From the UHGV virus genome UHGV-0168042: a stretch of DNA of 64,000 bases; one strand, written 5' to 3'. Numbering within the stretch: position 1 is the stretch's first letter; each line of letters opens with the position of its first letter. Source of the stretch: a virus. The notes under the pieces were generated by a model. It saw only the letters and a program-made list of their open reading frames with translations. It searched no databases and was not told the DNA's origin. Shown here piece after piece: positions 13,168 to 56,898 of this stretch. The translations under genes were made by a program, and so were the position numbers.

Positions 13168-13382
13168 CAGTGCACCTCCACGCAGTTCATTGGCAGATTC
13201 CAGTAATTGAGGATCTCCATCGCATCAAGAGTGAAGCGTGCGGCAAAAATGCAGGGTTCTTCAGGAAGGTATGAACGAGCTTCTGCTTCGGTTGCAGCCA
13301 TGACGCAGATATACAGGTGTTTTTGGCAGGAATAGAAACGCCAGATAAATTCAGAATGAGTTGGGGTAGGGATAGTAGCCAT
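13167..13382 (-). CDS. icd: Icd-like host cell division inhibitor family small protein, copy 1
   Basis: 71 aa; EFIWRF motif shared with second copy at 54099-54323; translationally coupled to Rha. Confidence 0.45.
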   Translation of the reverse strand: MATIPTPTHSEFIWRFYSCQKHLYICVMAATEAEARSYLPEEPCIFAARFTLDAMEILNYWNLPMNCVEVH

Positions 13383-13694
13383 ATTGGCAGCCTCCTTTTG
13401 CTAATTTAAGGAGCTACCGCGTGAGGTTCCAATCTCAATGGCGGTAGCACTGACTGGGTTGGAACTACCGGCGCAAAAGGGAACCGGCCTGCCTTTCGGC
13501 AGCCCAGCCAGCACTACCATTGATCTCTGAGCTAAACGCTACGTATGGCTGTGCGATGGCATGACACAAGAAAAGACGCTTTCGGCGTCTGTGTCGCCTT
13601 TTGCATTATCCGGGGTTCCAATCCCGGCACCCGTTTTTCTAAGGTGCCGTAGAAATATACCCCACGATAATGCCAGGGCGCAACAGTCAGTATT

Positions 13695-13862
13695 TTATGC
13701 TTTGGCGGATTTCTTCCGGGCTTGCTTGCAGGCGTAGGCCATTGCTTTAGCTTTCACTTCATCCAGCTTCCCGGTAATCACTTCTTTTCCGAGAGTGACA
13801 AACCAGTCATAGCAACCGCCAGTAATGTTCTTGATTTGAAAGTTGAGGTAGCGAACAGTCAT
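13695..13862 (-). CDS. Small hypothetical protein (55 aa)
   Basis: ATG with GGGGGAG RBS 6 nt upstream; MTVRYLNFQIKNITGGCYDWFVTLGKEVITGKLDEV...; below ORF-track cut-off. Confidence 0.3.
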   Translation of the reverse strand: MTVRYLNFQIKNITGGCYDWFVTLGKEVITGKLDEVKAKAMAYACKQARKKSAKA

Positions 13863-14182
13863 TTTGACTCCCCCAGCGCGAATAAAGAATGCAGATTATC
13901 GCGTGAGTGGTGGACGACGAGTGATGGGAAAAGACTGTAGTTGTTCATAGTGTAGTGACTCCTTGCTTTCGGAGCCGCCATCGACTGTTCCACGGTCTGG
14001 TGGCGGCGCAATAAAGGCTGGAACACCGTGAGTCAACGGGGGCTTTTCAGCCACCTATATTGCACCGCCATAGGTATGGCGGGGGCAATAATACGAAAAA
14101 CTAAACAGTTTGTCTCAAAAAGTTGACCGGTGTGCCAATCGGTAGTGAATGTACATCGGAGAAATTTACAATTCAACTTAAA

Positions 14183-14212
14183 ATGTTAGAAAACTAATTT
14201 ATTAATTCAATC
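14183..14212. promoter_or_regulatory. Operator-like motif ATGTTAGAAAACTAATTTA (degenerate full site) overlapping the ref stop codon
   Basis: Near-identical 19-mer recurs in reverse orientation at about 43721-43740 and a 15-mer at about 33307-33323. Confidence 0.4.
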
Positions 14213-14772: not shown

Positions 14773-14820
14773 GATGGCTGCCTCTTACTTTTCAGCTATT
14801 TTTCTATGATTGATCAAAAC

Positions 14821-14850
14821 AGTTAGATATTCAAAATTGATTTTCTAACA
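14821..14850. promoter_or_regulatory. Operator-like inverted repeat GTTAGA-N16-TCTAAC upstream of ref
   Basis: AGTTAGATATTCAAAATTGATTTTCTAACA, about 50-78 bp upstream of the ref ATG. Confidence 0.55.
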
Positions 14851-15044
14851 CAAAACATTAATATCATTCCTGATAACTGTTTGGAGGACATGATGCTTAT
14901 AGCTTTAAGTGCGATCCACCAGCCATCTGTGAATGAGATTGGCCTGTTCTATGTGTTGTTTTTCGGGGCGTTGGCGCTACTTGAACTTGGTATTGAGCTT
15001 TTCGCAGTGCTTATGTTTTGCGTCACGATTTTGGGGAAATTTTG

Positions 15045-20048: not shown

Positions 20049-20074
20049 TCAAATCATTTACGCACTCAAAATCA

Positions 20075-20104
20075 CGTTAGAACATTGATTTTAGTTTTCT
20101 AACA
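20075..20104. promoter_or_regulatory. Operator-like inverted repeat GTTAGA-N16-TCTAAC upstream of the 20147 operon
   Basis: CGTTAGAACATTGATTTTAGTTTTCTAACA, about 45-70 bp upstream of the ATG at 20147. Confidence 0.55.
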
Positions 20105-20146
20105 TATTATTTTACCGATCGGAACAAAACAGAGTCGGTATGCATT

Positions 20147-28441: not shown

Positions 28442-28821
28442 TGAGGCATATATCACCGGAAGAACTTATTGCGCTTCATGATGCGAATATAAACCGCTAC
28501 GGCGGCCTGCCGGGAATGTCTGATCCGGGTAGGGCAGAGGCCATTATCGGGAGAGTTCAGGCCAGAGTTGCCTACGAAGAGATCACCGACCTTTTCGAAG
28601 TCTCCGCCACCTACCTGGTGGCTACAGCGAGAGGGCATATATTCAATGATGCCAATAAGCGTACCGCGCTAAACAGTGCGCTGCTATTTCTACGCCGTAA
28701 CGGGGTGCAGGTATTTGATTCACCTGAACTGGCAGACCTTACCGTAGGGACTGCGACTGGCGAGATATCTGTATCTACTGTCGCCGCCACGTTACGTAGA
28801 TTGTATGGTTCTGCGGAGTAG
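28441..28821 (+). CDS. doc: Doc toxin (Fic-fold kinase, death on curing)
   Basis: 126 aa; start overlaps phd stop; [40 protein letters not shown]... matches P1 Doc as recalled. Confidence 0.85.
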
Positions 28822-28825
28822 ATTA

Positions 28826-29023
28826 ATGGCACGCAAATGCAACAAATTGTCCCATAAAGCGTTAAAGATGCTTCTTGATGGCGTGAGTCGCCGCGAGGTA
28901 AAGCAATACCTGGTTGGTAAGCAAATTGGTGCCAGGACCGCTATTGCTGTGTTATGCCGTCAGGAAATGGTTGTGCTTAAACAGAGAATGCTTGGTAGCA
29001 GACAAAGTGCTTCCAGTATTTGA
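28826..29023 (+). CDS. Small hypothetical protein
   Basis: Internal ATG with GGAG RBS; 65 aa. Confidence 0.3.
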   Translation: MARKCNKLSHKALKMLLDGVSRREVKQYLVGKQIGARTAIAVLCRQEMVVLKQRMLGSRQSASSI

Positions 29024-29027
29024 AAAG

Positions 29028-29061
29028 AAGCCCGCCATACCAAGCGGGCTTTTTGTTATTT
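29028..29061. terminator. Bidirectional rho-independent terminator
   Basis: AAGCCCGC-loop-GCGGGCTT followed by TTTTGTTATTT; sits between convergent operons. Confidence 0.55.
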
Positions 29062-29832
29062 CACCTCTTCTGTCGCTGTATCATTGGCCTGTTCTTCTTT
29101 GGCCCGTTCTGCAATCGCCGCACGGCATTTCGCCCTGGCTGTAGCGATTGCTTCTGCTCGTACATCGTCTGGAATCGTTGACGTTATATACATATCCAGT
29201 TCTTCGGCACGGAATACTGTTTGGTCCAGATATTCGCGTAGCATCCAGGTAAATTCGAAATCACACGCGATAATCTCTGCGCTACCTTCTGCACCATTTG
29301 GGAAATGAATAAATGCCTGTTTAGCCAAACCGATAACACGACATGCGGTTACCAAAACAGCGACAACCAGGTTTACATTTTCACACGCTACGGGCTGATT
29401 AACGCCGGAGATTACTCCATTTAACTGTCGGTTATATGGAAGGTAGTTTGAGATGCGTTCTACGCGCCATGTGCCAGTCAGGCTGCCATTTTTAAAGATA
29501 ATTGGTGTAACGGATAGCCCAAGCTCGCGTATAAGTCGTTGCGCTATAGCAGGATCATTAAACAGGTCTAATGCTACACATTCGAAAGACTGCGCAAGGG
29601 CAAACAGTTCTTCCAGAGAGTAGTCTTTGCCCCTGGCGGTGATGTAACGACGAACGCCGCTGTCTGCATCACTCCATATAGCTACGCCATGCTCTTCATT
29701 CAGTTCTTCATTAAAGCCGAGATACGTCATGATAGTGCGTTCAATCGTGTCAAACGGCAGTGACATGTCGGCGTTAACAGCCACCAGCAGGCCATTACGC
29801 AAGCGGTATTGAATTGTTTTAGTGCTTTCCAT
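29056..29832 (-). CDS. Hypothetical protein
   Basis: 258-aa ORF. Confidence 0.45.
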   Translation of the reverse strand: MESTKTIQYRLRNGLLVAVNADMSLPFDTIERTIMTYLGFNEELNEEHGVAIWSDADSGVRRYITARGKDYSLEELFALAQSFECVALDLFNDPAIAQRLIRELGLSVTPIIFKNGSLTGTWRVERISNYLPYNRQLNGVISGVNQPVACENVNLVVAVLVTACRVIGLAKQAFIHFPNGAEGSAEIIACDFEFTWMLREYLDQTVFRAEELDMYITSTIPDDVRAEAIATARAKCRAAIAERAKEEQANDTATEEVK

Positions 29833-29838
29833 GTCAAA

Positions 29839-30516
29839 TCACTCCACAACAAACCAGTCACAGGCCAGCAGGTCGCCAACTGAAGGCACCCACGGAACAA
29901 CTACACCTTGTGCATTTTTTAAGGCGAAATAAGCACCATACGGAACGAGGTCGCCGGGGAAATATCCCTTAATGGCTTCCATTCGTGCCGGGTACTGTCC
30001 TTCAGGAACCAGCCAGCAGAATTGGTCTTCGCCGTTCCACCCGCGTCGAGCAACTTTCTTGCCATCCTTCAGCCACATCAGCGCGTCAGAAAAGTCGGCT
30101 GCTTCAAGGTCGATTTCTTCTTGCTGGGTGGTGATGCCACCAGCAGAAATAGTTACGCTCCCGGTAAGATTAATCATCTCGCCGTTGTCATCCGTAATGA
30201 TGACCGTGGTTCCATTTTTGGAGGCGTCGTTAACCAGGCCATAGCGTTCCTCAAATGGTTTCTCCGGGACATAGAACAGATAACCGTTTTCATAAACGAT
30301 CAGATACCCGCCAGTTTTTGGTCGGTGTTTTTGTAAAAAAATTGCGTCAACACAAACTGTTGCCCCTTTAGGTTCAACGAGTTCGATGCTGCCCCAAAGT
30401 GGGGCATCAGTTACTCCGAAAATAACAACATTTTTGATTTTCGATGCACTAACGTTTTTGTGAGCTTTGTATTTGGGAAGGAGCTTAAAAAGCTCTTTCG
30501 TTGCCATGTTATTCAT
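29839..30516 (-). CDS. Hypothetical phage protein
   Basis: 225-aa ORF; C-terminal MWLKDGKKVARRGW motif is shared with the small ORF at 53195-53395. Confidence 0.4.
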   Translation of the reverse strand: MNNMATKELFKLLPKYKAHKNVSASKIKNVVIFGVTDAPLWGSIELVEPKGATVCVDAIFLQKHRPKTGGYLIVYENGYLFYVPEKPFEERYGLVNDASKNGTTVIITDDNGEMINLTGSVTISAGGITTQQEEIDLEAADFSDALMWLKDGKKVARRGWNGEDQFCWLVPEGQYPARMEAIKGYFPGDLVPYGAYFALKNAQGVVVPWVPSVGDLLACDWFVVE

Positions 30517-31839: not shown

Positions 31840-31912
31840 AGCACCCTCCTAAATAGGCGAGGGTACTTTACAGCAAAGGCGTTAATCTAAAAAGATGTGT
31901 TAGAAATTTAAT

Positions 31913-32941
31913 TTACGAATCCATCAGGCGGCTATTAGCCCCCACAGACACGCCGCCACGGCGAAGATACCGCATAAGTGTTTCCGGTTTCTTCCATGTT
32001 CCTTCCTGCATGATCTCCACCATAGACACCTGCTTTTCAGCCATATCAATAGCGGCCCCGACGCGTGCACTATGCCCGGTCCACGTCCGGTATCTTCCTT
32101 TGTTTGGCGTAGCATCTCTTTTATTCAGCAACACCCAGGCGTCGCTGAATATTTTCTCCATTGCAGGTGCAGTAAGGGGCGTTGTCGTGATCCTGGCCTT
32201 ATTGCTACGGTGTATCGGCGGGAACAGCACTGCGTCAGGATGTTCGCGAAGCCCGGAAACATCCAGCCAGTCATTCAGCACAGCGGTAGTGCGACGGGAA
32301 AGCACCTTATCAAGCCCGGCGGCGGTCGTTATTGTCTTCGTGTGTGAAATATGTAGCGTGACAGTGTCACCTGTTTGGTCCAGATCTCCTACACGAATAC
32401 GCGAGATTTCCGACATACGCATCAGCGTATTGTATGCAACAAAGAGAAAAGCCCGGTTGCGCAGGTCCACCAGCCGTTCTGACCTGGACAACAGGACGTC
32501 GAGCAGTTTCAGATCGTCCCACCGCAGCGGTATAGCCTGGCCTGTTCGTTCGCCTTTTTCCGTTGCCGCTTCACGCCGGATGCGCCGCATAGCCAGAGAA
32601 ACACTTTTATCATCCGAAAGTGGCGGAAGGCCACAATGCGAAAGCAGCATGTTAAGCATGGCGTAGTGCTTATCAATGGTGGTCGAAGCCAGATCAGCAT
32701 CATGCAGCTGGAGAAAATACTCGCGGGCCATCTCTGGTGAGATCGGGAACCAGGCGAGCTGGCGAGCGTGACACCATCTCGCCCAGGAGTGAAACACTAA
32801 CCGGAGATCGCGCAAAGTATTCGGCGCGTAAGCCCCCCGGTCATTCATGAACCGCATAAAGTTTTCTGCGGCCTCCTGGTACTCTTTGCCAATGTTGCGC
32901 AGAAAACCACCGGAGCTGCCAGAGATAATTAATTCACTCAT
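31913..32941 (-). CDS. dre: Cre-family tyrosine site-specific recombinase (Dre-like)
   Basis: 342 aa; aligns by eye with P1 Cre: WFPISPEMAREYFLQL vs WFPAEPEDVRDYLLYL, LRNRAFLFVAYNTLMRMSEISRIRVGDL vs IRNLAFLGIAYNTLLRIAEIARIRVKDI, TWTGHSARVGAAIDMA vs AWSGHSARVGAARDMA; palindromic site about 150 bp upstream. Confidence 0.85.
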   Translation of the reverse strand: MSELIISGSSGGFLRNIGKEYQEAAENFMRFMNDRGAYAPNTLRDLRLVFHSWARWCHARQLAWFPISPEMAREYFLQLHDADLASTTIDKHYAMLNMLLSHCGLPPLSDDKSVSLAMRRIRREAATEKGERTGQAIPLRWDDLKLLDVLLSRSERLVDLRNRAFLFVAYNTLMRMSEISRIRVGDLDQTGDTVTLHISHTKTITTAAGLDKVLSRRTTAVLNDWLDVSGLREHPDAVLFPPIHRSNKARITTTPLTAPAMEKIFSDAWVLLNKRDATPNKGRYRTWTGHSARVGAAIDMAEKQVSMVEIMQEGTWKKPETLMRYLRRGGVSVGANSRLMDS

Positions 32942-33093
32942 GAAACTATTTCGCCTCTATATACAGATGACGCTACGCGAAAAATATAAAAATGACAGGG
33001 TAGCTATAAGTTAATTTTCAAAATACAAGCCTTTGATTCGAGGCGCGTATTTTCATTGATGTCAACACTGATCATCTACCCATGATTATAGCC

Positions 33094-33125
33094 TAACTTT
33101 AAATAATGCCAATTATTTAAAGTTA
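33094..33125. other. rox-like recombination target site (32-bp palindrome, 14-bp arms, 4-bp spacer)
   Basis: TAACTTTAAATAAT-GCCA-ATTATTTAAAGTTA; arms perfectly inverted; begins TAACTT like a loxP arm; matches the rox site of Dre recombinase as I recall it. Confidence 0.8.
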
Positions 33126-33306
33126 TAAAATGGCGATTTTTTTTAATCCATCACAGATTGATTCTGACCAGTAACACGTTGCCTTCATGGTCTTTAATTT
33201 GCGAAGTGTGGTTTATACAGTTGGTTTTCTAAAATTGATGACAAAAAATCACAGCTCTATCCTTTACTCACTCTGTTATTCGACATAAATTTGTCATAGT
33301 AATTTT

Positions 33307-33323
33307 ATGTTAGAAAACTAAAT
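33307..33323 (+). promoter_or_regulatory. Operator-like motif ATGTTAGAAAACTAAAT in the leader of the 33336 gene
   Basis: 15-mer identical to sites near 14183 and 43721. Confidence 0.4.
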
Positions 33324-33335
33324 CGAGTAGGAATA

Positions 33336-34373
33336 ATGAGTAAGAAGTCGATCGAGAAAGAGTACAAACGGTTCCTGCAAACCGCTGAACGGTGGAAAGA
33401 GCTGGTGGTCGCAAACTCTGTTTTCCATGATACCAGTTATGCTGGCGAGGAATTCCGCCATGTTGCATTAACGCATGACCAAAACATATTAGAAGAAGCT
33501 GAAAAATGTCTTGCTGAATGGAAAGCCTTCGTTGACATGTGTCGCGATGCCGACGGCAAAGCGTCGAACATTGTTGAGTCTGTATATTCTCCGATCCCAT
33601 TCATCATTGAGGACACCAATCAAAGCACGCATGTTGTTGTGCAAAGCGCTACAACAACACGTACATTTACACGTGAGCAATTGCTCAAAAAATACGACAA
33701 AATCATAAAGAAAAGCCTGAAAAATAGGGTTTTTTCTCAAATCGTAGGTGCTCTTGAAGAAGAACAGCGCTTCTTTGAAGCTGAGCCTGAAGGCGAGATC
33801 TACCGGGCGCGTAAAGAGGCATATACAGATGTTGTGCTGACAACAAACATCGAAGGCAGCAATGCCCTTTCTCGCTTTAGAGTTGGCGCACATGGCGCAT
33901 TGGTTTTCGCAAGACTACCGAAGACAACGATCCCCGTTGTCAATAATGTTGGTGAACGCCGGAGCATTACAATTTATTCTGGCGTCGAATCGGTACCTTG
34001 CAGCCTTCTCGGCGATTTTAACTTATATCGTGTTCGTGACCTGGAAAAACACCAGCCAAGCTACGTTGCGAAGTCGTACATCTTAAGGAACATCGATATT
34101 CGCAACGAAAACCTTAAGCAGAAATCCGCTAAGATGCTGGAGGATGCCGATCCGGCCATTCGCCATATCATTGAACGTAAGATTCGTACATCGCGTGAAG
34201 CAATGGCAAGGCTGGATAAAATGGATCTGGAATTGTTAGACGTAATGATGGCCTCTGGAGACGACCTGACCGGCATCAAACTGAATGAAGCGCGTAAAAA
34301 ATACGGCAAAGCAATCGAAGAACGTTACGGATACACATTCCCCCAAACGCAGCACGCCGCAAAGCTCTGGTAA
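33336..34373 (+). CDS. Hypothetical protein next to recombination site (candidate regulator; function unknown)
   Basis: 345-aa ORF; AGGAA RBS; sits between rox-like site and terminase in the position occupied by immunity genes in P1 (positional inference only). Confidence 0.45.
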   Translation: MSKKSIEKEYKRFLQTAERWKELVVANSVFHDTSYAGEEFRHVALTHDQNILEEAEKCLAEWKAFVDMCRDADGKASNIVESVYSPIPFIIEDTNQSTHVVVQSATTTRTFTREQLLKKYDKIIKKSLKNRVFSQIVGALEEEQRFFEAEPEGEIYRARKEAYTDVVLTTNIEGSNALSRFRVGAHGALVFARLPKTTIPVVNNVGERRSITIYSGVESVPCSLLGDFNLYRVRDLEKHQPSYVAKSYILRNIDIRNENLKQKSAKMLEDADPAIRHIIERKIRTSREAMARLDKMDLELLDVMMASGDDLTGIKLNEARKKYGKAIEERYGYTFPQTQHAAKLW

Positions 34374-37663: not shown

Positions 37664-37741
37664 TAATCCCCCGGCAGGAAATGACCGAGGGGATGATAAT
37701 GAGAATGTTAAAACTGTATAGACTGGTAAAAAGATGATTAT

Positions 37742-37769
37742 ATTAGAAAATTAATATTAAATACCTAAC
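37742..37769. promoter_or_regulatory. Operator-like inverted repeat ATTAGA-N16-CCTAAC
   Basis: ATTAGAAAATTAATATTAAATACCTAAC in the 108-bp intergenic region upstream of 37271-37663. Confidence 0.45.
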
Positions 37770-37770
37770 A

Positions 37771-38163
37771 CTACCAGCGAGACAAACGAACAACATGTTT
37801 CACTTTTGCGATCCACTGTCCGCGATAACTATTGATTACGGCCTGTGCCAGCTTCAAATTGGCTTCAAAATCAGCCTTACTACCATCAGACTCCACCAGC
37901 ATTCCTCCATCTATTTCTGGTAAACATAGATAATCCTGCTCAACCTGCAGCGGCATTGATGGCTCTCTGAATGGCGTTACTTGCTCTGCTTTCCAGCGAA
38001 ATCTAACCCTCATCCCCCTGGTGGTCATTACTAGATAGCCTGTTATAGTGCTTTTATGGCCCACATCAGTACGCGTGGCATTGCATGACACGATCTTACA
38101 GTTAGCGATAGACCACTCCATATTGGTGGCCTGTTGAGTGCTTAATTTGGTAGTCCCGTACAT
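37771..38163 (-). CDS. Hypothetical protein
   Basis: 130-aa ORF. Confidence 0.4.
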   Translation of the reverse strand: MYGTTKLSTQQATNMEWSIANCKIVSCNATRTDVGHKSTITGYLVMTTRGMRVRFRWKAEQVTPFREPSMPLQVEQDYLCLPEIDGGMLVESDGSKADFEANLKLAQAVINSYRGQWIAKVKHVVRLSRW

Positions 38164-41840: not shown

Positions 41841-42463
41841 ATGCGGCACTCTCTCCGCCCGTCACCGCTCTGTCTCGGTTGTCGCGTTTGCCACGCCAGC
41901 CGTAACGAGGTTTAAAGTCTTTGCACGTTTCCATCACTCGACTGCCGTCTGTGGCTGTTCGTTGCAGCGGGGGTGCCTCCCCCTGGGGATATCCCCGGCC
42001 TTACCCCATTCTTTCAAGACACAATGCAAGGCCACATCCGCATAGGTGCATTACCGCAACATTAAGGAGACTCAGGGCAAAAGGTAACCGCCACAAAAAT
42101 CCCTATGCCTCCTTAATGTTGAAGATGTGCATTGATGATTAGATGCAGCATGTACCGTTACTCTCTGCCGGACCATCATCAATAAACACCTTAAAAAGGC
42201 CTTCCGTGGCTCAACATGTATTGTCGTTTACTCCGCAAAGTGCTCTCTCTGAAACCACTTTCCGCACTAAACCTGCTGAACTTTGGCCTGCACGGTGCCA
42301 AAGCGTGCTCTTGCGTTACTATACTTTTCTAACACTTTAATTTGTTAAATGCTGGTGGGCGAACAATAACCAATAAGTGACTATCAAGCCCAGCAAGCGA
42401 AACGTGGGTACCGCCCACCAGCAAGGAAAATTCTATGTTAAGTTACCTTCACAATCAATACAT

Positions 42464-42491
42464 TCGAATTGTGATTTTAGATTTCTAACAC
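42464..42491. promoter_or_regulatory. Operator-like site ATTCGA-N16-TCTAAC (left half degenerate)
   Basis: Spacer ATTGTGATTTTAGATT resembles the spacer of the 20075 site; a second half-site TTTTCTAACAC lies at about 42325-42335. Confidence 0.35.
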
Positions 42492-42492
42492 A

Positions 42493-43701
42493 TTATTTCC
42501 CGTAAAGATCTTCTACACCCCCATTATTCTTATCCCATTCGTTCGCCCATACCCGGCAAGCGTCAATGATTTCCTGACGACGATCTCCTTGCATGAACGG
42601 AATGCTTTCATGGAAACAGCTTGGAATGCAGGCCACACTGAATACAGTATCAAACTCCGTCTGCTTGATTGCCTCCAGCGTCTCCGGACGCATTTTTAAT
42701 TCATCGATTGGCGCATCCTTAGAGTCCATAATCCGGCGATATAAGCACGGAAAATCCGTCTCCAGGTACGCCATAATTTTATCTGCGAGACATTCGTCTA
42801 TGTCGGTATTCCAGTCCTTTTCGAAGCCCGGCAGGCGATAGTAAAGCGGCGTTCCCCATACCGATGGGATCACATCCATCGTTAACAGGCGATTGGTTCT
42901 GATTTGTTGATGGTAATTAGCCGTCAGCAGTGCTTCGCCACGCTGCCCAGTTTCCGCAACCAGGCCGTGCGGATACTCATGGATGTAGGCAATGGCATCC
43001 CTTCCGTCATACATAAGTGGAAATGTCTCTGGTCTTTGTCCCATGCCACAAGCACGGTTCAGATCGTGACCAAGCTGTGAGCACTCTCGCTTTAATGTTT
43101 CGATAATGCTCTGCGCTGTAGCCAACTTTTTACGCAGTGTGACGCCTTCGCCTTGATAATCAATGCATTGCTGATTGAGCTTGGTTAAACGCTCTTTTAG
43201 TTCCCGGCGCTCTCTTTTCAGCGTGCGGTTATCCTTCTCCGCAACATCCAGCCGCTTTGTCAGGCTGGGCGGATAGTCTTTTTTGTAACGGTTCAAATCG
43301 GCTTCGGCAGATTTACGCAGTGTATTTGCCTGTTCAAGACGCGCTTCCAGATTGCCGATCTCATTACGCATATTCGCGGCAAATTGATTAACTGCATCAC
43401 CCAGGCTTTCAACTGTCGCTGATACGCCTGTGACTTGTGAAAAACGGATCAAGCCATCATTAACGGCTTGTTGGTATTCCTCAAACTGATCCACCAGCTT
43501 ATTGTAATCAACTGCCCCATCATCAAGCAGCTTGTTGATTTCCGCCACCAGGTTATCTGTAGTGGCAATGACACTCTCGTGCAGTCGCTTTGACAGGTCA
43601 TCACCCGGATTCCGTTTCTGTATAAGAGCGATTTGTGTGCGCAGCGTTTCAATTGCTGTCGAGATAATTTCCAGATTAGAAGTATCAGTGTGTTGACTCA
43701 T
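42493..43701 (-). CDS. Hypothetical protein with N-terminal coiled coil
   Basis: 402-aa ORF; operator-like 19-mer about 20-38 nt upstream of the ATG. Confidence 0.5.
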   Translation of the reverse strand: MSQHTDTSNLEIISTAIETLRTQIALIQKRNPGDDLSKRLHESVIATTDNLVAEINKLLDDGAVDYNKLVDQFEEYQQAVNDGLIRFSQVTGVSATVESLGDAVNQFAANMRNEIGNLEARLEQANTLRKSAEADLNRYKKDYPPSLTKRLDVAEKDNRTLKRERRELKERLTKLNQQCIDYQGEGVTLRKKLATAQSIIETLKRECSQLGHDLNRACGMGQRPETFPLMYDGRDAIAYIHEYPHGLVAETGQRGEALLTANYHQQIRTNRLLTMDVIPSVWGTPLYYRLPGFEKDWNTDIDECLADKIMAYLETDFPCLYRRIMDSKDAPIDELKMRPETLEAIKQTEFDTVFSVACIPSCFHESIPFMQGDRRQEIIDACRVWANEWDKNNGGVEDLYGK

Positions 43702-43720
43702 TGCTGTTCCCGTTACTTTG

Positions 43721-43740
43721 TTAAATTAGTTTTCTAACAT
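43721..43740 (-). promoter_or_regulatory. Operator-like motif ATGTTAGAAAACTAATTTAA (minus orientation) upstream of 42493-43701
   Basis: 19/20 identical to the site at 14183-14202. Confidence 0.45.
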
Positions 43741-43814
43741 ATTTTATTAGTTTGATGACGGTATCGGAAGATGCAATAAACAAAAAACCCGCTAATTGGC
43801 GGGTTTTTATGCAA

Positions 43815-54323: not shown

Positions 54324-54653
54324 AGTTACGGCCTCACTAACAGGTTTAACAACCTGCTACCCGCTGTCAAACAGGTGGCAGGACGTGACAGGGTTGACAG
54401 ACTGGCGTTAGTGAAACCAGCAGGCCGAAGCCTCCCCATCACGCCCCACCATAATTCGGGCGTAACGCGGTTTACGGACACAAAAATACCGCAATATCGG
54501 AAATCTGCGGTTGTCCGCACTAACATTCAGGCTGTCAAACCTGGTCGCAGAATTTGCTACGACGGCATGAATATAAGCCTGAAAACATGGAAGATCAACT
54601 AAAAATTTCAGCAATGGATGACTTCAGTCGATGATGCAGATCATACATTCCGA

Positions 54654-54681
54654 TTTAGAAACAGCAAATTAATTTTCTAAC
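54654..54681. promoter_or_regulatory. Operator-like inverted repeat TTTAGA-N16-TCTAAC upstream of icd/rha copy 2
   Basis: TTTAGAAACAGCAAATTAATTTTCTAAC, about 330 bp upstream of the icd-like ATG. Confidence 0.5.
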
Positions 54682-54736
54682 ACAAATCATCGAGCGAGCA
54701 TTTTCCGATCATTGGGATGCTTTGTAGACACACAGG

Positions 54737-55699
54737 TCATCCCCTAAATCCCGCAGGGATTGACCAATCCTCCCGGTCAAATTCAGACCGATAGCCACGC
54801 TGTTTCATCAGGTCAAAGGCTTCACCAATGGTTACACACCCCTGGGAGCCAGAATAATCCATTGAGAAATCCAGGGCACTGGATTGTTTAGGCTTATTCA
54901 CTGCGGTAGCGGCACTACGTATCCATGCAAATTTTTTTGCCAGCTTTTCAGCGGTACGATACAGAGCCTGCCGTTTTGCGTGCCCCTCGTCTGAACGACG
55001 CTTTGCAGCTCTCGCTTTTGCCGCCGCCAGGCAGTGGTTGGTATGTTCTTCACTGATTACTGGTTTTTTATCCAGCCCCCCATTATCCGCTTGAGAACTA
55101 TTTGCTGGTGAAGCCTTTGGCTGAACCGCGCATGATCTTTCTCTTCTTTTGGCTATAGAGTGACTCTTATTTTCTATTGGCTGTTCATTTTGAACATGGG
55201 GGGACTTGTTCAATTTGAACAGGGGGTTCCCAGTTTCAAAAAAATAACGAACCTTTGAAATCAACTGCTTAACCAGTTTTGTGGCGTTGGCAAATTTGAT
55301 GCCCTGCTTACCCCCTATCTCCATTGCTACATGAATAAAGTGGAGAAATTGTGTCGTAAACCGATATACGTTACACACCTGGGCATTGTTATTCGCTACC
55401 TGATGTTGCTTAACAAGCATTCCGCACTTCGTCGCTTCAGCAAATGCCCGGCGCACAGTAGAAATACTGCGTCCTGTAATCTCGGACATATCAGCATATG
55501 AGCGACGGATCATGTATTCATCGGTAGACCCTGCCAGGTTGGCGAACTCGGCAATAATGGCGCTATGTGAAGGGGAAAGAAGACCGCTATGACGAGCAAA
55601 AAAACTCAACTGATGACCTTTGATTTTTTTGTGGTATTCAGTGTTGTTTTTATACTCAGAAGTGTTGAAAGTTACTGAAACTGAATTTAAAATACTCAC
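54737..55699 (-). CDS. HTH-domain protein, possible replication/regulatory protein
   Basis: 320 aa, GTG start; N-terminal third AT-rich with HTH-like ...MSEITGRSISTVRRAFAEATKCGML; inverted repeats upstream. Confidence 0.4.
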   Translation of the reverse strand: MSILNSVSVTFNTSEYKNNTEYHKKIKGHQLSFFARHSGLLSPSHSAIIAEFANLAGSTDEYMIRRSYADMSEITGRSISTVRRAFAEATKCGMLVKQHQVANNNAQVCNVYRFTTQFLHFIHVAMEIGGKQGIKFANATKLVKQLISKVRYFFETGNPLFKLNKSPHVQNEQPIENKSHSIAKRRERSCAVQPKASPANSSQADNGGLDKKPVISEEHTNHCLAAAKARAAKRRSDEGHAKRQALYRTAEKLAKKFAWIRSAATAVNKPKQSSALDFSMDYSGSQGCVTIGEAFDLMKQRGYRSEFDREDWSIPAGFRG

Positions 55700-55729
55700 C
55701 AGATAGTTCCGTGAAAAAATCTATCTACC

Positions 55730-55757
55730 GTATAAATCTATGGCAGTGGATTTATAC
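55730..55757. repeat. Inverted repeat GTATAAATC-N10-GATTTATAC upstream of 54737-55699
   Basis: Perfect 9-bp arms; a second palindrome AGTGTAT-ATAA-ATACACT at about 55854-55871. Confidence 0.45.
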
Positions 55758-55762
55758 ACCCA

Positions 55763-55796
55763 AAAAGCCGCTTCTCAGCGGCTTTTGCTTTTTTGG
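55763..55796. terminator. Rho-independent terminator (bidirectional) after the upstream minus-strand operon
   Basis: AAGCCGC-TTCTCA-GCGGCTT flanked by A-run and TTTTGCTTTTTT. Confidence 0.55.
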
Positions 55797-55899
55797 CAGT
55801 CGCTACCGGAGCAGTGACCGCGATCCTACTCGATCCCATCCACCAGGATCAACAGTGTATATAAATACACTATGTTAGAAATTTAACTTAACAAGGCGA

Positions 55900-56898
55900 T
55901 TACCCCCTTCTGGAAACAAAGAGTAACGGGGTGGTGTTTTTGTTCTCCTTCGGTGATAACTCTGGTTCTTTCTTGCCTGATACCGGTAAGCCATAAGTAG
56001 CATTTGCCCCAAGAGATTCAAGCATCGCAGCCACTATGCGGGCATCATCTTCAGACTGCATACGGCAAAGCGCCCGGCGCTGTTCTGCGCTGATAAAAAC
56101 AGGCATTTCCTGGATAGCATCACGCAAAATCCGGCGGCATTGCTTTGCATTTTCCCCCTGGCTTTCCATCATCGCTGTTTGAGCGCGCAGCTTTTCTCGA
56201 AGCTGTATGTTTTCCACTTCAAGGAGCATCAATTCTGATTCCAGGGCTTCACGATGTGCAGATTCGAGCATGGCTTGCTGATTTTTCATTGCTGAAAAGT
56301 GGTGAACCAGATCCGTAGCAGCGTTATCGGTAAAACCTTGTTCGATAAGTGCTGCATGAATAGCCGCATCGCGCTCTTCTGCTGATTCAAGCATCAGGCT
56401 TTTCTTGTCGAGGCTGATATAGTTAGGCACAGTTACGTAATCAAAGCCGTGGAAAGACTTTACCAGGGATACAGATGAATCTGGACCAGATGTAGCCCAC
56501 GACCAACCACCAGCACCAGAATTAATCATGCCCTGAACAATACGCCCGGTGTCTGTATCCAGTATTTCCTGCGTATGCGTAACAATGCCGTTGTCGTCAA
56601 TCGAAATGTCGATAGTCCTGTTTGACGGCACGTTCTCCAATACAACAGGCTTCCCATCTACCATCACAACAGAGACTTCCGGCAAGTTCAGGCTTTTCGT
56701 TTTGTTATAGTGCATCGCCCGGCGACCATGACCGTAATAACCATACATCTCACCCAGCGCGATACGCTCTTTTGTTTCTGGCGAGTTGAATGTGTCTCGT
56801 ACCGACTGAATGACATAATTTCGGTTGTTCTGCGGTGTGTGTTTGCGGATTTTCTCTACCAGGGAGAAGCGATCCGTAACAGTATTCAGTGATTGCAT
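55900..56898 (-). CDS. Hypothetical head-module protein (possible prohead protease/scaffold; positional)
   Basis: 332 aa; C-terminal half coiled-coil-like; lies downstream of the portal-like gene. Confidence 0.35.
   Translation of the reverse strand: MQSLNTVTDRFSLVEKIRKHTPQNNRNYVIQSVRDTFNSPETKERIALGEMYGYYGHGRRAMHYNKTKSLNLPEVSVVMVDGKPVVLENVPSNRTIDISIDDNGIVTHTQEILDTDTGRIVQGMINSGAGGWSWATSGPDSSVSLVKSFHGFDYVTVPNYISLDKKSLMLESAEERDAAIHAALIEQGFTDNAATDLVHHFSAMKNQQAMLESAHREALESELMLLEVENIQLREKLRAQTAMMESQGENAKQCRRILRDAIQEMPVFISAEQRRALCRMQSEDDARIVAAMLESLGANATYGLPVSGKKEPELSPKENKNTTPLLFVSRRG

Follow-up and report, generated by a model that had tools for sequence, protein, structure and literature searches.

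A palindrome-rich region between pro and repL of a D6-like phage-plasmid: probable control region of a lytic replicon whose origin most likely lies inside repL

Two hundred base pairs densely packed with palindromes, situated directly upstream of a gene for a replication-like protein, raise the question of whether they form an origin of replication or control the neighbouring gene. The region concerned comprises positions 55700–55900 of a 64,000-nt stretch of UHGV virus genome UHGV-0168042, which is referred to here in its entirety as the window. An initial annotation had likened the layout to an origin or initiator-binding region. On balance, we consider it probable that the 200 bp instead constitute the control region of a lytic replicon, placed before the initiator gene repL and comprising a C1 operator, a terminator and an antisense RNA, with the lytic origin (oriL) residing inside repL.

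The 2 kb around the locus are 100% identical to plasmid pO157 from E. coli O22:H8 strain 154 (NZ_CP067430), at least 99% identical to numerous non-mobilizable E. coli and Salmonella plasmids of ~92 kb, and 96% identical over 2 kb to the orf20-orf21 intergenic region of phage D6 (MF356679), where all elements described below are present and where the GenBank record annotates coding genes only, among them repL-like and pro-like genes. Judged by these matches, the window is a D6-like member of the P1-family phage-plasmids. Its minus strand carries, in this order, darA … prt (portal), pro, repL, the immI module and darB, and the 200 bp in question are the gap between pro and repL. The relatives compared were P1 (L003), two members of the E. 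fergusonii/Shigella dysenteriae lineage (L005 and L006), plasmid NZ_CP067430 (L010) and two distant RepL lineages found via protein search, one from Enterobacter hormaechei (L062) and one from a metagenome (L064), both ~35% identical. P1 features were taken from the annotation of NC_005856. Species-representative genomes that were searched contained P1-type repL only, and scans of viral contigs added no further repL lineages.

With respect to the 320-amino-acid (aa) product encoded next to the region, earlier described as a helix-turn-helix replication-like protein, the assignment to replication is borne out, whereas the helix-turn-helix call comes down to a weak, sub-threshold match to Pfam HTH_36 (local Pfam copy, E 0.0037). 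The protein aligns with P1 RepL over residues 28–320 (BLASTP, 29% identity, E 1e-29), shares the C-terminal IPAGFRG with it, and matches PHROG 2418 (E 1.7e-130) as well as PHROG 391 (replication initiation O-like, E 1.5e-7). Pfam family PF26868 (Phage_P1_RepL) is a precomputed match on all homologues, and the gene is annotated as 'lytic replication protein' in phage D6 and in plasmids. The GTG start codon is backed by an ATG at the equivalent codon of relatives, where the residues SILNS follow as they do here. By homology, the open reading frame (ORF) thus specified is a full-length RepL homologue and lytic replication initiator; RepL of the E. fergusonii-type relatives is 65% identical to it. 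Its AT-rich 5' end was correctly noted before, the first ~100 nt having a G+C content of 30%.

The structure within the 200 bp is real and non-random. Three distinct perfect inverted repeats with arms of at least 7 nt were observed, compared with 0.22 in mononucleotide shuffles, and two have arms of at least 9 nt (P ~0.003, mononucleotide shuffles). When the region was folded as a single strand, z-scores of -6.5 (minus strand) and -4.9 (plus strand) were obtained against dinucleotide-preserving shuffles, none of 200 shuffles being as good. The perfect inverted repeat with a 10-nt spacer (inverted repeat 1, IR1), the second palindrome and the bidirectional terminator of the initial annotation are all present, with symmetry of the second palindrome confined to its 7-nt arms. 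Seen in the direction of repL transcription, the features from pro to repL are as follows.

55900–56898, minus strand: pro, gene of the head-processing protease, at the end of the late head operon (annotated in D6 and plasmid NZ_CP067430)
55870–55888, plus strand: monovalent operator of the D6-type C1 motif family, core ATGTTAGAAATTTAA at 55872–55886; site span by position weight matrix (PWM) 55866–55892
55854–55871: palindrome 2, AGTGTAT-ATAA-ATACACT, with perfect 7-nt arms and an asymmetric 4-nt centre
55822–55858: three GATC sites (55822, 55832, 55847) and two conserved blocks, read on the minus strand as GAGTAGGATC (55822–55831) and ACACTGTTGATC (55847–55858)
55758–55795, both strands: bidirectional intrinsic terminator, hairpin AAAAGCCGCT-TCTC-AGCGGCTTTT at 55763–55786
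55735–55763, minus strand: weak candidate sense promoter of repL, -35 TTGGGT (55763–55758), 17 nt, -10 TAGATT (55740–55735), overlapping IR1
55730–55757: IR1, perfect inverted repeat GTATAAATC-N10-GATTTATAC, arms 55730–55738 and 55749–55757
55700–55795, plus strand: predicted antisense RNA of ~96 nt with stem-loops SL1 (55701–55727), SL2 (IR1) and SL3 (terminator)
55665–55693, plus strand: predicted constitutive antisense promoter TTGAAA (55665–55670)-17-TAAAAT (55688–55693) within repL codons 3–12, predicted start ~55700
54737–55699, minus strand: repL, lytic replication initiator of 320 aa, GTG start (homology to P1 RepL)

An origin of the iteron or DnaA type should contain repeated initiator boxes beside an unwinding element. 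No repeated half-site, no repeated initiator boxes and no dyad box of the type described below were found in 55700–55900; the half-site of IR1 does not recur inside or near repL, where no iteron-like array was seen either. Inspection of the region by eye for DnaA and IHF sites gave partial, non-conserved matches only, the single DnaA-like 9-mer, CATCCACCA, agreeing in six of nine positions and not being conserved in D6. Signatures of cis-acting DNA occur inside repL, at ~55120–55235, and the origin assignment for the 200 bp is accordingly unsupported, while the suggested link to replication stands insofar as the region is functionally part of the repL replicon.

55120–55235, minus strand: most likely oriL core inside repL, two dyad boxes and an A-rich tract ending AAAGATCA (GATC at 55134)
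55182–55196 and 55207–55221: dyad boxes TGTTCA-N3-TGAACA, both perfect, forming a direct repeat spaced 25 bp
55134–55181: A-rich tract, a putative unwinding element, adjoining the dyad boxes

These boxes are the only two perfect copies of TGTTCA-N3-TGAACA in 64 kb. On the coding strand the segment reads CCCCC-TGTTCAAATTGAACA and CCCCCCA-TGTTCAAAATGAACA, i.e., with a run of five or six C before each box, and then continues into the A-rich tract ending AAAGATCA. The aligned P1 segment reads CCCCCA-TGTCAAAATGATA and CCCCC-TGTCAGGATGACG, followed by AT2, which ends AAAGATCA as well. In P1, repL has long been regarded as the site of the lytic origin. There, AT2 is required for RepL-driven replication, truncated non-coding repL fragments containing AT2 suffice in trans, and a C/G-rich stretch of unknown role precedes AT2 (Huan et al., 2023; PMC9948254); the dyad boxes are not mentioned in that paper. 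Compared with L005 and L006, the fraction of identical codons among identical residues amounts to 0.8–1.0 at codons ~131–200 and to 0.25–0.5 elsewhere in the gene. Against P1, L062 and L064, nucleotide identity reaches a maximum of 0.65–0.76 around residues 165–190, where amino-acid identity is mostly 0.3–0.45 (overall range ~0.3–0.7), so that identity at the DNA level exceeds that of the protein. Because of the frozen synonymous sites, the excess of DNA over protein identity and the homology to P1 AT2, oriL of this replicon is most likely located at ~55120–55235, ~500 bp from the region originally proposed.

The dyad boxes change symmetrically from lineage to lineage. They read TGTTCA/TGAACA in the D6 and E. 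fergusonii types, TGATCA/TGATCA in L062 and L064, and TGTCA/TGAYA in P1, always occurring as two copies 24–25 bp apart and directly before an A-rich, AT2-like tract (P1, 3678–3719; L062, 3423–3474; L064, 3511–3562). Since the dyads co-vary symmetrically with the RepL lineage, they are candidate binding sites of dimeric RepL.

If the origin lies within repL, what is the role of the palindromes upstream? The terminator hairpin is preceded by an A-run and followed by TTTTGCTTTTTT, thus offering a usable U-run in both directions. Its stem is conserved, the loop differs in L005 and L006, and L062 and L064 have a terminator at the corresponding position. Minus-strand transcription of the late head operon (…prt-pro) is predicted to stop here, as is the antisense RNA made from the plus strand. 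Like the terminator hairpin, IR1 is kept in all aligned D6-like and E. fergusonii-type relatives, and an exact pattern search recovered it in all 28 relative loci fetched at that stage; in the distant lineages L062 and L064 it is absent. Within IR1, the core ATAAATC...GATTTAT is invariant and the flanking pair changes symmetrically from T:A to G:C in the L005/L006 lineage, while the 10-nt spacer differs even between close relatives that keep the arms. The notion that IR1 or palindrome 2 belongs to a family of repeated motifs was rejected, since neither occurs more than once in the window or in the complete reference plasmid.

The predicted antisense promoter is the best sigma-70 match in a 2-kb scan (10 of 12 positions). 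In L005, the same hexamers at the same spacing are the only promoter-like match in 700 nt, five of the 17 spacer bases being different, and in comparisons with relatives all identical residues among repL codons 1–20 are encoded by identical codons. The RNA predicted to start there would be complementary to the repL leader as far as the base preceding the start codon. In SL2, the IR1 stem is predicted to be lengthened to 12 bp, two U.G pairs included. Folding without the terminator gave -16.5 kcal/mol for the plus and -13.2 kcal/mol for the minus strand of the window, the corresponding values being -35.5 and -20.1 kcal/mol in L005 and -35.4 and -23.6 kcal/mol in L006. In a comparison of eight variants, pairing holds for 97.2% of cells. 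Both partners of the outer two pairs are altered in the L005/L006 lineage, one stem position alternates between U.G and U-A, and where U.G pairs occur, at three stem positions, the other strand would have C.A mismatches. A plus-strand RNA is favoured because of this strand asymmetry in folding, the U.G pairs confined to the plus strand and the combination of a variable loop with invariant arms, and IR1 is probably the central stem-loop of an antisense RNA to repL. A search against Rfam revealed no known RNA family in 55700–55900. As a separate observation, the small SL1 hairpin is replaced in L005 (2927–3000) and L006 (2926–3000) by a segment that is 43 bp longer and forms two strong hairpins, with G.U pairs only on the strand antisense to repL.

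At the other end of the region, 12 nt from the stop codon of pro, the initial annotation had placed an operator half-site. The sequence is there, but rather than a half-site it constitutes a full monovalent operator, presumably of a D6-type repressor. With up to three mismatches, this motif occurs 14 times in the window, compared with 2.7 expected occurrences, and none of 100 shuffles reached 14. The PWM detects ~16 sites with the asymmetric consensus RTGTTAGAAAAYTAAT (~17 bp), arranged as four overlapping inverted pairs offset by 17 bp and eight singles.

2714–2757, 14814–14857, 20068–20111 and 37734–37777: operator sites in inverted pairs (PWM)
14177–14203, 31891–31917, 33301–33327, 42315–42341, 42471–42497, 43720–43746, 54663–54689 and 55866–55892: single operator sites (PWM)
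54663–54689, minus strand: second C1-type operator, just downstream of repL and before immI, analogue of P1 Op51

Sites are located upstream of c1, the lpa homologue, ref and c4-icd-ant, and also after the stop codons of ref, dre and pro. The c1 repressor gene itself (33336–34373), whose product is 99% identical to D6 C1, has a site 15 nt upstream. Because the sites occupy positions like those of the P1 regulon (c1, lpa, ref, c4-icd-ant), the dispersed motif presumably represents the regulon of the D6-type C1 repressor, which would bind there; a P1-type C1 operator was not found in the window. It may be added that the single operators at 14177–14203, 31891–31917 and 55866–55892, each at most ~25 bp from the stop codon of the convergent gene (ref, dre and pro, respectively), all point into that gene and not toward the next gene downstream.

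Between operator and terminator, conservation is of a different kind. Palindrome 2 was found in 23 of 28 relative loci by exact pattern search, an L007-type group having one arm mismatch, and only the arm adjoining GTTGATC is kept in L062 and L064, so that its dyad symmetry is lineage-specific. Its interpretation as a P1 late (Lpa-dependent) promoter was rejected: measured against the consensus AAGTTACTT (9-bp box)-N4-TAnnAT (-10), derived from four annotated P1 promoters, only four of nine box positions match, and the pattern is not enriched in the window. Nowhere else in the window do three GATC sites fall within 40 bp as they do at 55822–55847. In the repL-sense direction, the operator core TTTCTAA is followed by 16 variable nt, (A/G)CACTGTTGAT(C/T), 15 variable nt, G(G/A)GTAGGATC, a variable hairpin and the terminator. 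In all five lineages the spacings of 16 nt between operator core and first block and of 15 nt between the blocks are exact while the spacers diverge, which suggests promoter elements or a fixed protein-DNA complex. Four of five lineages preserve TTTCTA-16-TACACT, which would be a sense promoter. On the plus strand, the order of Dam sites, -35 and operator is reminiscent of P1, with a -10 that is not conserved. When hexamers were compared across the five lineages and the other operator sites, no promoter candidate was kept in all lineages. A conserved hairpin at 55822–55850 was considered and rejected, as the pairing is lost in L005.

Several other explanations for the 200 bp have to be weighed against a control region. 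If they formed all or part of the lytic origin, the GATC cluster could serve SeqA/Dam control and the palindromes could be initiator sites or hairpins for single-strand initiation. The GATC cluster is indeed the densest of the window, six consecutive hairpins are predicted (z -6.5), an AT-rich stretch and the initiator gene adjoin, and the two exactly spaced blocks, which have no assigned function, are kept across all lineages. None of this is matched by repeated initiator boxes, however. IR1 and palindrome 2 are not kept as palindromes in the distant RepL lineages, P1 has a like GATC triple at its promoter P53 and not at oriL, and the origin of P1 is inside repL, a truncated non-coding AT2 fragment sufficing in trans (PMC9948254), with DNA-level constraint on precisely the homologous segment of the window; we therefore hold an origin at 55700–55900 to be very improbable. 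Another explanation concerns IR1 alone, which may be the operator of a dimeric DNA-binding protein that recognizes ATAAATC-N10-GATTTAT and occludes the weak repL promoter at 55763–55735. This promoter was read from the sequence and not reported by the consensus scan; D6 and L005 retain its TAGATT as well as a TTG, separated by 16–18 nt. The binder would most plausibly be RepL acting as an autorepressor, as in many plasmid initiators, and the HTH-like character of the RepL N-terminal region (sub-threshold HTH_36, O-like PHROG 391) is in line with this. So are the conserved arms around a free spacer, the one symmetric double change (T:A to G:C) that keeps the dyad, and the position of IR1 across spacer and -10 of the candidate promoter. 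On the other hand, autoregulating initiators normally use a common half-site at operator and origin, and IR1 does not fit this pattern: its half-site is unrelated to the intragenic TGTTCA boxes and found nowhere else in repL or the element. Moreover, with ~17 bp between them the half-site centres are awkwardly phased for a simple HTH dimer, the lineages L062 and L064 have RepL yet no IR1, and the U.G-compatible changes together with the folding asymmetry favour a plus-strand RNA. A protein operator at IR1 thus appears unlikely, though worth keeping in mind.

The exactly spaced blocks lend themselves to a further proposal, in which 55796–55888 forms a unit of its own. A C1-repressed promoter (-35 TTTCTA, 55881–55876; -10 TACACT, 55859–55854) would give rise to a short early RNA ending at the terminator, with a 3' hairpin complementary to the one that closes the antisense RNA; rather than encoding repL, this RNA could upon induction neutralise the antisense RNA or activate the origin region by transcription. 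The shared order of operator, blocks at 16-nt and 15-nt spacings, variable hairpin and terminator with a good sense U-run in all five lineages speaks for such a unit, as does TAnnnT, kept in four of the five, and given the downstream terminator with its good sense U-run, a sense promoter at the operator would therefore yield mostly short RNA. The hexamers are weak, however, the -35 matching in three of six positions and the -10 reading TGCACT in L062; the early RNA has no Rfam match, the hairpin at 55822–55850 is not conserved, and the plus-strand reading of the same blocks resembles the layout of P1 P53 equally well. We give this proposal a small chance of being correct. A similarly tentative and still slightly less probable combination would have two convergent small RNAs meet at one shared terminator, a constitutive antisense silencer and a C1-repressed early RNA relieving repL upon induction, with the dyad boxes as the long-sought RepL sites of oriL; the strictly spaced blocks and the Dam cluster would then be promoter and leader of the early RNA.

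Returning to the control region, gene identities, the operator motif family, the conservation patterns and the DNA-level constraint within repL are established here, and on this basis the following course of events can be proposed. Along the minus strand, the pro stop codon would be followed by the C1 operator beside promoter-like blocks and three Dam sites, the terminator, the leader with IR1 and a second small hairpin, and the repL start. The terminator (55758–55795) would stop transcription of the late operon ahead of repL, and C1 would act as the lysogenic off-switch for repL. A plus-strand promoter in the first repL codons would produce a constitutive antisense RNA of ~96 nt that ends at the same terminator and covers the ribosome-binding region and the leader, with IR1 as its central stem-loop. 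Much like P53as of P1, this RNA may lower repL expression by pairing with the leader and by collision with sense transcription. Once made, RepL would act ~500 bp away within its own gene, at the dyad boxes (55182–55221) and the A-rich tract (55134–55181).

A number of observations weigh against this proposal. All promoters are predictions, and the antisense transcript, its mode of action and the binding of C1 and of RepL to their respective sites have been deduced from sequence features. The antisense promoter was not detected in L062 and L064, the two most distant lineages. Support from covariation in the IR1 stem is modest, amounting to about one lineage split plus three G/A changes, and conserved arms with a free spacer fit a dimeric DNA-binding protein equally well. 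As for repression, the operator lies 170 bp upstream of repL with a good terminator in between, operator and GATC cluster are oriented as in the P1 P53 layout on the plus strand, i.e., away from repL, and no C1-type operator was found near IR1 or overlapping the weak repL promoter, even at a PWM score of 3 bits. Furthermore, tblastn at E 1e-5 revealed no similarity between D6 C1 and P1 C1, and the designation 'C1-type' derives from GenBank annotation and regulon logic.

Comparison with P1 offers a framework for these elements. Both lytic replicons have a RepL initiator whose own gene holds the origin (in the window, the probable one), with homologous C-rich repeats and an A-rich tract ending AGATC. 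In each, a monovalent operator, in the window presumably that of C1, has three Dam sites beside it (in P1 at P53), and a bidirectional terminator bounds the region. An antisense promoter, predicted in the case of the window, is situated in the first codons of the first gene and fires back to the terminator. In P1 this promoter, PaskilA (P53as), is situated within the first kilA codons, its start being 176 nt from the bidirectional terminator that precedes P53. Heinrich and colleagues (1995) are reported to have found that P53as specifies a constitutive RNA of ~180 nt, which reduces both P53 transcription and replication. The regulons resemble each other in having monovalent and bivalent asymmetric operators at similar positions, while the operator sequences differ. 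Unlike P1, the window lacks kilA, no ORF being found between the control region and repL, which follows directly after a leader of ~60 nt. Its replicon is located between pro and immI and not downstream of ant; operator and GATC cluster lie beyond the terminator from repL and in opposite orientation; the antisense RNA is predicted at ~96 nt instead of ~180 nt and does not cross the operator; and the boxes are TGTTCA/TGAACA instead of TGTCA/TGAYA. Taken together, the region is, as far as can be judged from its sequence, a variant of the known P1 system. A more general likeness exists to R1 CopA/CopT, pT181 RNAI and ColE1 RNAI, where, as is generally known, a short constitutive multi-hairpin RNA with variable loops is directed against an initiator leader. 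In contrast to these plasmids, there is no sign here of a leader peptide, of attenuation by alternative folding or of an incompatibility function, and the replicon is a lytic one silenced by a prophage repressor.

Downstream of repL, the immI module contains the only Rfam families detected, c4 and its a1b1 targets.

3' of repL: immI module with operator, c4 RNA, a1b1 targets, icd and a Roi/Ant-like antirepressor gene (ant)
54524–54576: a1b1 targets of c4 RNA (Rfam c4-a1b1, 54.4 bits, above the gathering score)
54371–54456: c4 antisense RNA (Rfam C4, 68.8 bits, above the gathering score)

A sub-threshold Rfam match to the Hfq-binding small RNA isrK (43.5 bits, gathering score 50) on the minus strand at 54482–54563 overlaps the a1b1 target region. 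Downstream of ref, at ~13200–14200 and behind the operator at 14177, the annotated reference plasmid points to a second Icd-like gene together with small ORFs, and this stretch may be a second immI-like module. The 200-bp tile with the most perfect inverted repeats in the window is found elsewhere, at 33000–33200 between dre and c1, which is where the D6 record puts the rox recombination site; the strongest sigma-70 match in a scan of 30–45 kb, TTGGCA-16-TATAAT on the minus strand (33112–33085), falls into the same tile. Reference plasmid NZ_CP067430 carries a full glutamine-tRNA ligase gene (glnS, 28652–30313) beside its Dam methyltransferase.

The main value of these findings is corrective, in that they mark the palindromes as regulatory and not as an origin. 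The experiment initially put forward, cloning of 54737–55900 into a non-replicating vector, could not have separated the two, because this fragment spans all of repL and with it the origin candidate inside the gene. Phage-plasmids of the P1 family are widespread in E. coli and Salmonella as vehicles of resistance genes, and the pair of RepL and oriL has found use in synthetic biology for inducible amplification of copy number. From a second, diverged RepL system one would obtain an orthogonal initiator, origin and repressor; the one described here offers, in addition, a defined operator motif as well as candidates for an antisense regulator and for an origin, the boxes of this origin varying with lineage. 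Among the by-products, the D6-type operator consensus is most worth keeping, together with the lineage-specific dyad boxes, which mark the probable RepL sites of oriL. Finally, the comparison narrows the still-undefined oriL of P1 to two dyad boxes plus AT2.

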